A stretch of 64,000 nt of DNA from a bacterium (lineage in GTDB: Bacteria > Patescibacteriota > Saccharimonadia > Saccharimonadales > SZUA-47), in the NCBI GenBank assembly GCA_009923445.1, contig RFTN01000002.1, forward strand, positions 102,436 through 166,435. Direction: 5' to 3'. A model generated the notes under the pieces. It ran no database searches. It was not told where the DNA came from and saw only the letters and a program-made list of their open reading frames with translations. The position numbers were made by a program, and so were the translations under genes. Below, piece by piece: positions 16,490-30,047 of the stretch (positions are counted from its first letter, which is position 1; each line of letters begins with the position of its first letter).

Positions 16490-16726
16490 TTATTTATCTG
16501 GACTGATAATAGTTTGCTGAACGTGCGCCTCTACCGCACGGGCACCAAGCTGATATGCATCCGGATCAATAGCAATAGTTTCTATAGCGTTTTCAAAATC
16601 ATCGCCCATTGCCCCCACTCTATCTGCTGCAGCCGTATACTGTGCGTCAATATTGTCTAGGGCGTTAGACAAAACTTTCATTTCGTCTGTTCTTGGAATG
16701 CCGTATGCTGGCGCATCGTCAGTCAC
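16490..16726 (-). CDS. Hypothetical acidic small protein (78 aa)
   Basis: The GTG start lies 1 nt after the stop of the upstream ORF, suggesting translational coupling. No motif recognised. Confidence 0.5.
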   Translation of the reverse strand: MTDDAPAYGIPRTDEMKVLSNALDNIDAQYTAAADRVGAMGDDFENAIETIAIDPDAYQLGARAVEAHVQQTIISPDK

Positions 16727-16727
16727 G

Positions 16728-17030
16728 TTATGCTACCTCAGAGTGTGTGGGCATATTTACGTGTACATGTATTGGTATTGCAGGTTCGTCTATAGATTGT
16801 ATTGCTACTGTCACACTGTTTTCTAATGCTGCTAAACCTACTTTATGATTTAATAATGGCCCTCTTTCTACTGAAACATCTGAAGGTTTATAAGAATCTA
16901 GAAGCGAAGTAAAGTAATTATCTGCATTATTTTGCCCTACCACTTTAGCAACTTTGTTATAATCTTGCCATGCTTTATTAGAAGCATTCTCTGCTTGTTC
17001 GTCTGCATATGTTCTGTTTGTTTTAGTCAT
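16728..17030 (-). CDS. Hypothetical small protein (100 aa)
   Basis: The ATG at 17030 lies 9 nt downstream of a consensus-like promoter. The longer GTG-initiated ORF would contain the -10 box. Confidence 0.5.
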   Translation of the reverse strand: MTKTNRTYADEQAENASNKAWQDYNKVAKVVGQNNADNYFTSLLDSYKPSDVSVERGPLLNHKVGLAALENSVTVAIQSIDEPAIPIHVHVNMPTHSEVA

Positions 17031-17039
17031 AACATAAGC

Positions 17040-17068
17040 ATAATACACTATAGTGGCATGTATGTCAA
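17040..17068 (-). promoter_or_regulatory. Sigma70-type promoter TTGACA-17-TATTAT
   Basis: -35 TTGACA (17068-17063), 17-nt spacer, -10 TATTAT (17045-17040). The start codon is 9 nt downstream, implying a leaderless or near-leaderless mRNA. Confidence 0.6.
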
Positions 17069-17099: not shown

Positions 17100-17807
17100 C
17101 TACTTTAGGTTTTTTTGTGTATGTAAACTAGCAATATCTGACAACAAAGCTACTAAGTCACTAGCGTAGTGTTGTGTTTCTTGCACCATTGAGAAACTTT
17201 TCACCGTAAGTGCAGATGCAATACGCAGTACCTTAATGTGACTTGCGCTATAGTGACCGGACGCTTGTGGCTCAAAAGCCATACTGGGCAAATCAAATTC
17301 AAAGTTATCGCTCGCCAGCAACTTTGCGCCGTCTGCTGCGTAATCGGTATTTATGCCGTGGCCTGACAGCTTTAACAGTTGCATCATAAACCATACGTAA
17401 ACGATGTCTTTATTAGCGCCGTTATGCATTTGAACGAGCGCATCTGAAGTAATGGTGTAGTAGCTATTTTCGCATTCGTGTTCGGTGTAGGCATGAATGG
17501 TGCGGAGTATTTTATAGCCAGTTTCGAGTGTCTCGAGGTTTTTTGTAATATTGCTCAGCTGCAGTAGTGCGTTTGCAGATACGAGTCGTTTTAGCTCGTT
17601 TTGCGATTGCATGTACGTTACGTTGTTTATGCAAAACGGTTCGATGCCGCCAGCTAACTTACTTTTAGGTTTACGTACACCGCGAGCGAGCAGTGAAAAC
17701 TTACCACCAGATTCAGATAAAACGCTCAGTATTCGATCTGCCTCGCCGTAGTCGATACGCTTTAGCACTAATACGTTGTCGACTATTTTATGCATGAGTT
17801 TTAACAA
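17100..17807 (-). CDS. recO: DNA repair protein RecO
   Basis: RecO N-terminal OB-fold block (VLVLKRIDYGEADRILSVLSESGGKFSLLARGVRKPKSKLAGGIEPF). Its 5' end overlaps the REC gene. Confidence 0.85.
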   Translation of the reverse strand: MLKLMHKIVDNVLVLKRIDYGEADRILSVLSESGGKFSLLARGVRKPKSKLAGGIEPFCINNVTYMQSQNELKRLVSANALLQLSNITKNLETLETGYKILRTIHAYTEHECENSYYTITSDALVQMHNGANKDIVYVWFMMQLLKLSGHGINTDYAADGAKLLASDNFEFDLPSMAFEPQASGHYSASHIKVLRIASALTVKSFSMVQETQHYASDLVALLSDIASLHTQKNLK

Positions 17808-18162
17808 GTGAATCTAGTTTTTGCTGTAACTGCAAAAGCGTTGTAAGCGGTTTATACAACACGGCGCTTACGCCCAACTGCTTGAGGGCGCTTATTTGTG
17901 CTTGTGTCATTTGCTGCATTGTCCACACAAGTATTGGTACATGGTTCCAGTCGTGGTAACTTCTAAATTCGTGTAAAAATTCTATGCCGCTATGCCCTCT
18001 TAGCGCTATATCGAGTACAACGACGTCAGGTGAGGTTGTATCAATTTTATGAATCGCTTCTTGGGCACCAGCAACAGCAAAAACGTCATAGTTATATTTT
18101 TTTAAGTAACGGCTAACCGTTGCTACGACTATTGGATCTGATTCTATAAGAATAACGCGCAT
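17788..18162 (-). CDS. Single-domain response regulator (REC only)
   Basis: CheY-like fold with ESD acidic pocket, phospho-acceptor Asp in VVVLDIAL, Thr in LVWT and Lys in LYKPL. No output domain. ATG at 18162 chosen. Confidence 0.8.
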   Translation of the reverse strand: MRVILIESDPIVVATVSRYLKKYNYDVFAVAGAQEAIHKIDTTSPDVVVLDIALRGHSGIEFLHEFRSYHDWNHVPILVWTMQQMTQAQISALKQLGVSAVLYKPLTTLLQLQQKLDSLVKTHA

Positions 18163-18167
18163 ACAAC

Positions 18168-18863
18168 CTACACTAAACAAAGTTGATTTGTAATTTTCAT
18201 ATCGAATACGAGCCCATGTAACCCACCATGCCTTGCAAGCCGAATCGAAGAGCTCATTGCATCAACAAGTTGGTCGGCAATAAATAACTGGCTTGACGCG
18301 CCATTTGCTAGGTCAGAAAAAGGCCTGAGCGCTTTGCCTATGTTTGCTTTTGCCTTTGCAGCGAACTGCCGACTAAACTGCTGCGATGAATCTGTAAAGA
18401 CACCAATACAGATACCATTTTTTGTGGAATACGATGCGAGTGTAATGATTTGTTTTGCTTGTGGTGATGAATGTTGATGAGATTCAATAAATGCTCTGCC
18501 CATCATTGTTAGTGCGGTCGTAGCTACGTGCCTATTTGCCAAAATGACTGCTTGTTTTTTAGGAGTAGTTATCAGTACATTACAGCTAAATTGTTTTGCA
18601 TGATCGGCCAGTGAATATGCCGCATCAACAACTACAGCCGCCGGACTAATTGGCTGCAGGGCGAGTTGTGTTTGTTGACTGCTTGTACTAAGCGTATAGG
18701 CATCTATCGTGTCTATGGCATGCCTGGCAGCAGAACGAATGTCTGCGCGCGCTGACTCTGCTTCGGCCATAAACAAAATACGCACAAGTGGTGTCTTTAG
18801 ATCTTGTGCGAGCGCACTAAACAACGAATAAGCGCTTTGCGTGTCGTGCTTGCTAGCCGCCAT
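18168..18863 (-). CDS. Degenerate histidine-kinase-like protein (pseudo-HK, no sensor or TM region)
   Basis: The H-box-like segment FSALAQDLKTPL has Gln where the phospho-accepting His sits in SHELRTPL. The C-terminal half keeps HATPase-like spacing, but the N, G1 (DSSQQ) and G2 (GASSQL) boxes are degenerate. Confidence 0.6.
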   Translation of the reverse strand: MAASKHDTQSAYSLFSALAQDLKTPLVRILFMAEAESARADIRSAARHAIDTIDAYTLSTSSQQTQLALQPISPAAVVVDAAYSLADHAKQFSCNVLITTPKKQAVILANRHVATTALTMMGRAFIESHQHSSPQAKQIITLASYSTKNGICIGVFTDSSQQFSRQFAAKAKANIGKALRPFSDLANGASSQLFIADQLVDAMSSSIRLARHGGLHGLVFDMKITNQLCLV

Positions 18864-27997: not shown

Positions 27998-28414
27998 CTA
28001 AACCTGCGAGGTCATACCAAGATGCTGTCGAACCTTTTCTACCACATCAGCAATAACAACTTGAGATTTTACTAAATAATCGTCTACCCCGAGTTCTTGG
28101 GCGCGCTGACGGTCGCTGTCTTGGCTGAGTGCTGTAAGCATAATTACACGAACATTTGTGGTTTCGGGTGTGTTGCGCAGAATGTCTAGTACATCAAAGC
28201 CACTCACTTTGGGCATCATGACATCGAGCAATATAATATCTGGCCTAAACTCGAGTGTTGCGGCTAAGGCGTCTTCGCCATTTTGTACACGCTTAACAAT
28301 AAATCCTTCCGCATCGAAACGAGTTGCATACACACTAGCCAGAGAATCATCATCTTCGACTAATAAAATCTTTTTTGGGCTTGTTGATGTTGAGTTTATT
28401 ACTTGTTTATCCAT
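27998..28414 (-). CDS. Single-domain response regulator (CheY-like)
   Basis: ILLVEDDD acidic pocket, phospho-acceptor Asp in IILLDVMMP, MLTA, and DDYLVKS. ATG at 28414 has an AGAGGT SD. Confidence 0.85.
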   Translation of the reverse strand: MDKQVINSTSTSPKKILLVEDDDSLASVYATRFDAEGFIVKRVQNGEDALAATLEFRPDIILLDVMMPKVSGFDVLDILRNTPETTNVRVIMLTALSQDSDRQRAQELGVDDYLVKSQVVIADVVEKVRQHLGMTSQV

Positions 28415-28427
28415 AATACCTCTTATG

Positions 28428-30047
28428 CTACTTTGTTTGTGCGCATGCGTCAATGAATCCAGCAAATAATGGGTGCGGGTGTGTGGGCCGAGATTTAAAT
28501 TCGGGGTGAAATTGTGAAGCTATAAAGAACGGATGATTGGTGCCCTCGATAATCTCTACCAGAGTACCGTCAGGCGACACACCACTTGCGCTTATGCCCC
28601 AATTGGCGTATTGACCTACATACTTATTGTTCGCCTCGTAGCGATGCCTGTGGCGTTCGTTTACTGTTTTTGCTGTGTACAACTTACGCGCTAGCGAACC
28701 CTCTACTAGCTCACAGGGATAGTTACCAAGCCGCATAGTACCTCCCGTGCCCTCTTTGCCCTTTTGGTCGTTCATGGTATGAATTACAGGGTGAGGCGTG
28801 TTAGGGTTTAGCTCAATAGTGTTTGCGCCCTTTAGCCCTGCGCGACGTGCGGCCGCAATAACGCCAACCTGCATACCCAAACACAAGCCTAAATAAGGCA
28901 GTTTTGAGTCTAGGCTAAAAGTAGCGGCACGGATTTTGCCCTCTAGCCCACGTTTACCAAACCCACCTGGCACGACAATGCCATGCAGCCCACTAAGCTC
29001 TTTAGCAATATTTACTTTTGTATTTTCAAACTTTTCGGCATCAATCCATTTGATACGAACTTGTTTGCCCGCTGCCCACGCTGCGCTTTTTAGCGCCTCA
29101 ACGACCGACATATACGTGTCTTGGTTGTTTAGATATTTGGCAACTATACCAATGTGTAGCACTGGCGCACTATCATTACTAGCCCGCTCGACGAGTTTAT
29201 GCCACGATGCAACGTTTGCCTTTTTATTTGGCAAGTTAAGTCGCTCGACAAGCACCTTGCCTATGTTTTGTTTTTCAAGAGTAAGTGGAACTTGGTAAAT
29301 GGTATTGGCGTTTGGCAATAGTACAATTGCCCTTTTGTCGACCCCACTAAACAAACTCAGCTTACTAATTACTTCGTCGGGTGCCTGCGCTTCGCTACGG
29401 GCAACCAAAACATCGGGTACTATACCCAGTCCACGGAGTTCTCGAACCGCGTTTTGAGCAGGCTTAGTTTTAAGTTCGCCACTTGCGCCTAAATATGGCA
29501 AGTATACAACGTGTACATAGGCACAGTTTTCGCGGCCAACTCTCATACCCAGTTCGCGAATTGCCTCAATAAAGCTAAGACCCTCGTAATCGCCGACCGT
29601 TCCGCCAACTTCTATTATATGAACATCAAAACCCTTAGCAGCATTTTGAATATGCTCTTGTATGGCACTTGTCACATGAGGAATTATCTGAACTGTTTTA
29701 CCTAGATATTTTCCAGCCCGCTCGTCGTCAATAACTTGCCGCATTATACGCCCGCTCATAAGGCTACTTTGGCGGGTTAGTTCTATGTTTAAAAAGCGTT
29801 CGTAATGACCAAGGTCAAGATCTGTTTCGGCACCGTCTGCTGTTACAAAGCATTCACCATGCTCGGCGGGGTTGAGTGTGCCGGCATCGGTATTTAAATA
29901 AGGGTCACATTTTTGGATGTTTACGCTTAGGCCGCGGGCCTTTAATATGTTGCCGATTGAGGCGGCCGTTATACCCTTGCCGACTCCAGAGAGGACACCG
30001 CCAGTGACAAACACATATTTAGTAAGCCCAGTTTTGGCTTTTGCCAC
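28428..30047 (-). CDS. pyrG: CTP synthase
   Basis: N-terminal block KYVFVTGGVLSGVGKGI, and a C-terminal glutamine amidotransferase domain with GLCLGMQ and HRHRYE. Confidence 0.95.
   Translation of the reverse strand: MAKAKTGLTKYVFVTGGVLSGVGKGITAASIGNILKARGLSVNIQKCDPYLNTDAGTLNPAEHGECFVTADGAETDLDLGHYERFLNIELTRQSSLMSGRIMRQVIDDERAGKYLGKTVQIIPHVTSAIQEHIQNAAKGFDVHIIEVGGTVGDYEGLSFIEAIRELGMRVGRENCAYVHVVYLPYLGASGELKTKPAQNAVRELRGLGIVPDVLVARSEAQAPDEVISKLSLFSGVDKRAIVLLPNANTIYQVPLTLEKQNIGKVLVERLNLPNKKANVASWHKLVERASNDSAPVLHIGIVAKYLNNQDTYMSVVEALKSAAWAAGKQVRIKWIDAEKFENTKVNIAKELSGLHGIVVPGGFGKRGLEGKIRAATFSLDSKLPYLGLCLGMQVGVIAAARRAGLKGANTIELNPNTPHPVIHTMNDQKGKEGTGGTMRLGNYPCELVEGSLARKLYTAKTVNERHRHRYEANNKYVGQYANWGISASGVSPDGTLVEIIEGTNHPFFIASQFHPEFKSRPTHPHPLFAGFIDACAQTK

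Follow-up and report, generated by a model that had tools for sequence, protein, structure and literature searches.

A pseudo-histidine kinase and a degenerate receiver encoded ahead of recO: a putative phosphorylation-independent pair kept across Saccharibacteria

We analysed a 64-kb stretch of DNA from a member of the Saccharimonadales (contig RFTN01000002.1, assembly GCA_009923445.1; hereafter the window, whose positions serve as coordinates throughout), in which a protein resembling a histidine kinase (the HK-like protein) is encoded directly ahead of a single-domain receiver and the recombination gene recO (Table 1). The HK-like protein retains the fold of a HisKA kinase and has lost its catalytic residues, its receiver partner is itself degenerate, and related pairs are kept side by side across Saccharibacteria, mostly with Glu at both of the former phosphorylation sites. 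We propose, as an explanation that is on balance probable, that the two proteins are a cognate, phosphorylation-independent pseudo two-component pair, which works by protein-protein binding and not by ATP-driven phosphotransfer. In this model a pseudo-kinase dimer would dock the receiver in the usual kinase-regulator geometry, which would place residue 20 of the pseudo-kinase beside residue 51 of the receiver, and the complex, or the receiver released from it, would act on a further target partner. Candidate contact surfaces are the motif HSGIEFLxEFRSYxDW of the receiver and the tail Q-L-x-L-V of the pseudo-kinase. The window lineage would represent a Gln/Asp variant where most lineages have Glu/Glu, and the module would matter for growth independently of RecO, which would be a co-expressed neighbour and not the main output.

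Table 1. Features of the HK-like, receiver and recO genes and their surroundings (positions in the window)
Feature	Position	Strand	Basis
HK-like pseudo-kinase, 231 aa	18168..18863	-	Open reading frame and sequence; profile, AlphaFold2, Foldseek
Gln20, codon CAA, at phospho-His position	18804..18806	-	Sequence; alignment to CpxA and PhoR H-box
Degenerate ATP-lid region, residues 157-196	18276..18395	-	Family-profile alignment to PhoR
C-terminal tail, residues 225-231, T-N-Q-L-C-L-V	18168-18188	-	Conserved across family
Single-domain receiver, 124 aa	17788..18162	-	Pfam Response_reg E 4e-18 (66 bits vs cut-off 30.2)
recO, 231 aa	17100..17795	-	RecO_N, RecO_C, TIGR00613
Upstream gene, 219 aa, N-terminal transmembrane helix	18948..19607	-	Open reading frame; 84 nt from HK-like gene
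Promoter-like site TTGACA-17-TATTAT	17040..17068	-	Directly downstream of recO; consensus scan, 11/12 matches

Searches with the HK-like protein alone reveal little of its origin. The Pfam HisKA match (residues 14-51, E 0.006) is sub-threshold at 17.0 bits against a gathering cut-off of 26.9, HATPase_c gives no Pfam match at E<=1, an NCBIfam scan returns zero matches, and a single-sequence search of the PDB finds nothing useful. Kinases are reached only with a family profile, which was built from 139 of 336 cluster representatives and which matches CpxA (E 1.3e-9), chain 7z8n over its full length (E 7.6e-9) and DivL (E 2.7e-7), together with ZraS, HK853 and RetS; its alignment to PhoR spans PhoR residues 201-407. 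An AlphaFold2 model made with the family alignment as input (pLDDT 89.7, pTM 0.87) has two long helices, 5-32 and 36-61, followed by an alpha/beta domain. In Foldseek comparisons with the PDB this model is closest to HK853 in complex with RR468 (E 1e-9, TM 0.69) and to DivL (4q20, TM 0.69-0.71), with ZraS, AdeS and RetS among the further matches, and the top matches to HK853, DivL, CpxA and RetS have a probability of 1.00. The model, the Foldseek matches and the profile match to CpxA agree on the DHp hairpin (residues ~5-61) and alpha/beta CA domain (CA-like, ~70-225) of HisKA kinases. The protein is soluble, with no sensor or transmembrane segment, the DHp helix opening at residue 5, as an earlier note on this DNA, made from the sequence, had supposed. 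Profile searches and structure prediction, which that note had recommended as a check, return the DHp/CA fold.

The chemistry associated with this fold is missing. The H-box reads A-Q-D-L-K-T-P-L, and in the family-profile alignment Gln20 falls at the phospho-His of CpxA and PhoR, in agreement with the earlier note; there is no phospho-accepting His. The residues that follow, D21-L-K-T24, form a phosphatase-type motif of HisKA proteins (D/E-x-x-T/N), which is kept in the window clade. In the alignment to PhoR the N-box Asn position is A124 (18492-18494, - strand), the G1 box (D-x-G-x-G) is replaced by T157-D-S-S-(Q)-Q and the G2 box (G-x-G-x-G-L) by G188-A-S-S-Q-L, and by aligned residues none of the three ATP-binding boxes of HisKA kinases is retained. 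These losses had been noticed before, although the G1 register given for them was off by one residue. Exactly this protein is encoded on 7 contigs, with NCBI GCA_010031135.1 and the Logan assembly SRR8075950 among their sources, and because it recurs in independent assemblies a sequencing or assembly error behind Gln20 can be ruled out. With a kinase fold, a missing catalytic residue, a conserved family and an adjacent receiver, the protein qualifies as a pseudo-histidine kinase.

Conservation within the family lies elsewhere. Among 139 sequences G217 and Q227 are invariant, and P25, P71, A89, G154 and A196 nearly so; the most conserved part is the C-terminal tail, S/T-x-Q-L-x-L-V in the family, in which L228 and L230 are also nearly invariant. 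AlphaFold confidence falls to about 51 at this tail, and the combination of conservation with low model confidence would fit a short partner-binding peptide.

The receiver is a member of its family by fold and sequence, and in alignment with CheY and PhoB it keeps D51 (GAT, 18010-18012), T81 and K104-P105. Its acidic pair, however, is E7-S8, which places Ser at the metal-binding second Asp (CheY D13, PhoB D10) in both a MAFFT alignment and the ungapped Pfam register, and the five active-site residues are therefore not all present, contrary to the earlier view that every phosphorylation-site residue is kept. Pseudo-receivers are defined by these five residues (bioRxiv 10.1101/2025.06.23.661182), and because Ser8 breaks that definition the window receiver is formally a pseudo-receiver. 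Its description as a "still-phosphorylatable" partner is likewise doubtful, given Ser8, the Glu that most of the family has at the phospho-Asp position and the loss of the Thr in two relatives (L001 and L007, see below). The phospho-Asp is followed by a family-specific motif, H57-S-G-I-E-F-L-H-E-F-R-S-Y-H-D-W. A second stand-alone receiver is encoded in the window at 27998-28465 (- strand), just downstream of pyrG (28428-30047); it is canonical (L-L-V-E-D-D-D, I-L-L-D-V, M-L-T-A, L-V-K-S) and its counterpart in Southlakia, judged from the shared order of CHAP protein, S41 peptidase and receiver, is SEML1_0238, which is non-essential.

The HK-like protein belongs to a large family. A HMMER scan of 1.84 billion representatives recovers 336 clusters at E<=1e-3, nearly all of 225-245 aa, and wherever a source is named it is Candidatus Saccharibacteria or Saccharimonadales. 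Its members are labelled "hypothetical", with no precomputed Pfam domain, apart from some labelled "HAMP domain-containing histidine kinase", a label that is misleading for this family. Of 139 members, 20 have a Pfam HisKA match (best E 6e-5) and one reaches HATPase_c at E<=0.01. The H-box consensus reads L-A-E-Q-L-K-L-P-L, and a Gly-rich, G2-like stretch, S-G-A-G-I-F, persists in many sequences.

Using the receiver hallmark motif HSGIEFLxEFRSYxDW, we found relatives in 242 GTDB species genomes and on 376 metagenome contigs, and kept 80 related loci from each of the two sources for analysis. The gene order is conserved as L27, methyltransferase, LPG-synthase-like, xseA, xseB, methyltransferase, ~220-aa membrane protein, HK-like, receiver, recO and glyS, and is kept even where the HK-like proteins are <30% identical to that of the window. 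The receiver gene is adjacent in all loci with a detected HK-like gene (160/160), recO follows the receiver in 166/171 loci, mostly with a 4-nt overlap, and across loci the spacing of the three genes is suited to translational coupling. The window pair is thus no peculiarity of one genome but one variant of a pair found across Saccharibacteria; the arrangement was correctly called uncharacterised, as neither protein family is characterised. The same module is present in three loci recorded as Candidatus Parcubacteria or "Patescibacteria group" (L013, JAEYSX010000002.1; L060; L072). Because their proteins nest among those of Saccharimonadales in the tree, it is more likely that these labels reflect loose taxonomy than that the module has reached other phyla.

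Replacement of the phosphorylation sites is a property of both families. The His position in 275 HK-like proteins is Glu in 233, Gln in 14, Asp in 11 and His in 7, and the N-box Asn is present in 2 of the 275. A His at the acceptor position, which the earlier note had named as evidence against a pseudokinase, is therefore found in a small sibling clade, the family at large being without it. Of 160 receivers, 140 have Glu in place of the phospho-Asp. The second acidic residue is replaced by Pro in 139 of the same 160 and by Ser or Thr in 20, of which 18 are Asp-type; within the genome loci, Glu-type receivers (75 loci) have Pro at this site and those of the window clade Ser.

The residues at the two sites are associated with one another. 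In the 151 loci with both genes readable, the combinations (HK-like residue/receiver residue) are Glu/Glu in 116 pairs, Asp/Asp in 8, His/Asp in 5, Gln/Asp in 3 (all from the window genome), Gly/Asp in 3 and Asn/Asp in 1, with 15 pairs joining various non-Glu residues to a receiver Glu. Glu in the HK-like protein is always accompanied by Glu in the receiver (116/116), and the 20 pairs with a receiver Asp never have it (Fisher p 8e-17 for this avoidance, relatedness being ignored). Protein P0119 has His in the HK-like protein yet Glu in the receiver; because of this combination His is not tied to Asp, and we reject as a rule the notion that His in the siblings signals a real phosphorelay. In a separate sub-clade (L050, L065, L070, L074, L133, L152) the His position is occupied by Leu, Tyr or Ile in a divergent H-box reading L-D-L-Q-x-x-F, together with a Glu receiver; judging from these sequences, some lineages accept even a non-polar residue at the DHp site.

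The window clade occupies a particular place in this variation. The six closest relatives of the HK-like protein (P0002-P0007, 56-64% identical) all read L-A-H-D-L-K-T-P-L, and the next relatives are of the Gln/Glu type (L089 and L175) and the Glu/Glu type (L090). In a neighbour-joining tree built from the concatenated proteins, the types follow one another as Glu/Glu, Gln/Glu, Gln/Asp (window) and His/Asp, with codons running from GAA or GAG through CAA to CAT. The His/Asp relatives are not restored canonical pairs, because their receivers are also degenerate: the Thr position is Gly in L001 (receiver L001:1209-1583) and L007 and Ser in L003 (2037-2414), and the acidic pair in these receivers is D-S or E-S. 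Comparison with the outgroups mildly favours re-acquisition of Asp and His within a Glu background, the tree being crude and midpoint-rooted; the reverse course, in which an ancestral His/Asp pair was lost step by step, may apply instead.

Further insight comes from Southlakia epibionticum, whose equivalent block is listed in Table S1 of Wang et al. 2023 (Cell; PMC10633639), with transposon sequencing (Tn-seq) insertions given for the input DNA and then for T0, T1 and T2 and genes called essential (ES), non-essential (NE) or growth-defective (GD). At the HK-like position, SEML1_0246 declines from 32 insertions to 8, 3 and 1, and the response regulator SEML1_0247 (366 bp; NE/GD/ES) from 10 to 2, 1 and 0, while RecO, SEML1_0248 (NE/NE/GD), has 38 insertions and then 25, 36 and 29, and the GlyRS gene SEML1_0249 is GD/ES/ES (PMC10633639). 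Because recO insertions are tolerated, polar effects on recO or glyS do not account for the loss of insertions in the pair, and because insertions are lost in the syntenic pair and tolerated in recO, it is unlikely that the main role of the pair is exerted through RecO. The 219-aa upstream gene is the syntenic equivalent of SEML1_0245, which is hypothetical, predicted to be PsbP/Mog1p-like, "Patescibacteria enriched" and essential (ES/ES/ES; PMC10633639). The 219-aa, membrane-anchored protein of the window has zero matches in Pfam or NCBIfam scans, and its position is kept in every locus examined (L004, L005, L006, L090, L174, L175); it may work together with the pair, for instance by providing extracytoplasmic input. 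Two-component proteins are not discussed in the main texts of the Southlakia study (PMC10633639) and of a 2024 perspective (PMC11665869).

Several points weigh against a phosphate-free pair of the kind we propose. Orthology of the window pair with SEML1_0246 and SEML1_0247 is deduced from synteny and size, and a homologue search seeded with a member from Candidatus Saccharimonas sp. (an activated-sludge/environmental metagenome-assembled genome) returned only environmental relatives and no Southlakia or TM7x orthologue. In Table S2 the Southlakia protein scores weakly against Pfam (HATPase_c i-E 6.9e-6, HisKA 3.4e-4; PMC10633639), and because these hits beat any in the sampled family that protein may be less degenerate. 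The association between the two sites rests on only about three independent receiver-Asp clades, that of the window included, and the sample of loci is biased to receivers with HSGIEFL/FRSYxDW motifs like those of the window, HK-like alignments being too variable as a seed. Inter-protein mutual information (139 pairs, corrected by average product, APC) is noisy and confounded by phylogeny, its top pairs being dominated by the dimorphic receiver column H64; the same scan holds a few plausible interface pairs (HK R28-receiver D9; A45/A46-T15/V101), which we judged too noisy and did not use. The docking geometry is assumed from canonical pairs and the complex itself is putative. Finally, some phosphoryl chemistry may persist in the window clade, where Asp, Thr and Lys of the receiver and the D-x-x-T of the pseudo-kinase are kept.

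This last point leads to a rival explanation to which we allow a minor though appreciable chance, namely that in the window clade the pseudo-kinase is a DivL-like reader or phosphatase: D51 would be phosphorylated by another kinase or by a donor of the acetyl phosphate type, the pseudo-kinase would bind that form or dephosphorylate it via D21-x-x-T24, and the His-bearing siblings could shuttle phosphate like Spo0B and ChpT. Such a role would suit the retention of D51, T81 and K104 in the receiver and of D21 and T24 in the H-box (Glu-type members read E-Q-L-K-L), and it is helped by reports that HisKA phosphatase activity does not require His (bioRxiv 10.1101/2025.06.23.661182), that DivL is a His-less kinase reading a single-domain regulator (PMC4211667) and that a bona fide PAS kinase, SEML1_0318, is encoded in Saccharibacteria (PMC10633639). 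It must contend, however, with a receiver whose metal-binding second Asp is gone (Ser8), with H-type siblings L001 and L007 that have also lost the Thr (Gly), and with a pseudo-kinase devoid of any nucleotide-binding residues. The nearest outgroups (L090, L089 and L175) have Glu receivers, so that the module worked without Asp in close relatives. Nor did a search of the 64-kb window with PhoR and EnvZ, of the kind the earlier note had suggested for the genome, find a bona fide kinase; the only addition was the second, canonical receiver, and no CckA-like gene is seen in the window.

That the pair controls RecO activity or loading, for instance during DNA uptake, is in our view distinctly improbable. 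The near-constant placement of recO behind the receiver, with its short overlap (166/171 loci), is kept across Saccharibacteria as such a regulator would predict, but the whole block from L27 through glyS is equally syntenic, and adjacency to recO by itself therefore carries little information. Adjacency of recO and glyS probably also occurs in other phyla. In Southlakia, moreover, recO is NE/NE/GD while both upstream genes become essential, which makes losing the pair worse than losing RecO. We give hardly any credence to the idea of a decaying relic of a former two-component system, drifting to loss, in which Gln is one more inactivating change: every catalytic motif is indeed degraded and the genome is reduced, yet the frames are full-length and of constant size across a large radiation (336 cluster representatives, about 225-245 aa), family-specific motifs and near-invariant positions exist, the AlphaFold2 model is confident and the syntenic pair in Southlakia has a Tn-seq fitness cost. 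Conservation contradicts this reading.

We therefore retain the phosphorylation-independent pair as the explanation of choice. Of the earlier picture of a pseudokinase scaffold with a phosphorylatable partner, the kinase-derived pseudo-kinase survives and the intact partner does not. A more far-reaching version, which we think unlikely to hold in all its parts, would combine these observations as follows. Saccharibacteria would possess a fitness-critical, phosphate-free two-component system that may help define the lineage, with dimer and receiver held together via both former phosphorylation sites, possibly by a metal ion or charge network in which Glu of the pseudo-kinase gives in trans the carboxylate lost by the receiver (second acidic residue to Pro); the epibiotic life cycle would have this complex as a central switch, and the window clade would be re-evolving Asp and His, the latter by way of Glu (GAA), Gln (CAA) and His (CAT). 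Such a return of a pseudo-enzyme pair in the direction of catalytic residues would be rare.

The layout of the locus is that of a compact unit. A GGGG-type ribosome-binding site lies ahead of the ATG of the HK-like gene, the ATG of the receiver gene at 18162 is 5 nt past the TAG of the HK-like gene (18170-18168), and the ATG of recO (17795) and the stop of the receiver gene (17790-17788) overlap by 8 nt. The earlier note had read this arrangement correctly, and its suggestion that the pair is co-transcribed with recO is supported, with translational coupling in addition; a site scan finds no terminator-like site on the minus strand inside the three-gene unit. The identity of RecO is clear from RecO_N (PF11967, E 1.1e-18), RecO_C (PF02565, E 1.6e-5) and TIGR00613 (E 1.5e-24, 86.8 bits against a cut-off of 48.7). 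It is likely that the promoter-like site after recO marks the 3' boundary of the unit, although such sites are no more numerous in the region than in shuffled sequence and the evidence is accordingly weak. Behind this site, between recO and glyS, are two open reading frames without assigned function (16728-17048 and 16490-16726, - strand; 106 and 78 aa), and the gap between recO and glyS in related loci likewise holds small unannotated genes.

Pseudo-histidine kinases and pseudo-receivers are established concepts, known mostly as isolated oddities. About 0.9% of HisKA domains are without His and about 2% of receivers without Asp (bioRxiv 10.1101/2025.06.23.661182). New here are a cognate pair with both phosphorylation sites replaced, the conservation and translational coupling of such a pair across a large bacterial radiation, the association between the two replaced positions that is apparent from the sequences, and the fitness phenotype of the syntenic pair in published Tn-seq data, which the text of that paper does not discuss. 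A literature search on two-component systems of Saccharibacteria and on pseudo-kinases and pseudo-receivers found no description of such a paired arrangement. Both partners have lost phosphorylation chemistry together, yet the pair is kept across ultrasmall epibiotic bacteria, and the syntenic genes are needed for growth in Southlakia, the one species with genome-wide mutagenesis. The pair is thus a natural system for asking what the kinase-receiver interface does once the phosphate is gone. It is also a named candidate regulator for the biology of Patescibacteria, in which cell-cycle regulation has been described as virtually unknown (PMC11665869).

Among known systems, the canonical pairs HK853-RR468, PhoR-PhoB and CpxA-CpxR share with the window pair homology over the whole DHp and CA length, the order of kinase then regulator, and coupled translation. 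In contrast to them, the window kinase is without the His, the N-box Asn, G1, G2 and an input domain, and the receiver is without an output domain or second acidic residue, the Asp being Glu in most members. Spo0B and ChpT are small soluble proteins with a DHp and a CA-like domain that does not bind ATP; they have no sensor domain and act on receiver domains. This layout resembles that of the His-bearing siblings of the window protein. Spo0B and ChpT, however, depend on a conserved His, which is absent from the window protein (Gln20) and from about 97% of the family, so that only the siblings P0002-P0007 could be histidine phosphotransferases by this residue; moreover, neither is among the profile matches in the PDB at E<=10, whereas true HisKA kinases are.

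RetS of Pseudomonas, a structural match (6dk7, 6dk8), has a kinase fold and signals by binding instead of phosphotransfer. A large hybrid sensor, it attaches to the DHp of another kinase, and unlike the window protein it is without a dedicated single-domain receiver partner. A close parallel in arrangement is DivL-DivK of Caulobacter, in which a His-less protein with DHp and CA domains has a stand-alone receiver as its partner, DivL being also among the best matches of the HK-like protein in structure and sequence. DivL, which acts on CckA, has Tyr in place of the His and possesses PAS domains as well as a membrane anchor, and DivK is a genuine receiver that is phosphorylated. The window protein by comparison is a bare 231-aa core with Gln, or Glu in its family, its partner is degenerate, and a target of the CckA type is not seen in the window. 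In DivL the kinase core serves as a binding module and not as a catalyst (PMC4211667), and the same would hold for the window protein. Plant PRRs and fungal Rim15p are pseudo-receivers with Glu at the phospho-Asp position, as in most of the family described here, and pseudo-receivers function independently of Asp phosphorylation (bioRxiv 10.1101/2025.06.23.661182). Whereas those proteins are usually orphan or fused to an output, here the pseudo-receiver is accompanied by a pseudo-kinase of its own, with an association between the residues at the His and Asp sites.

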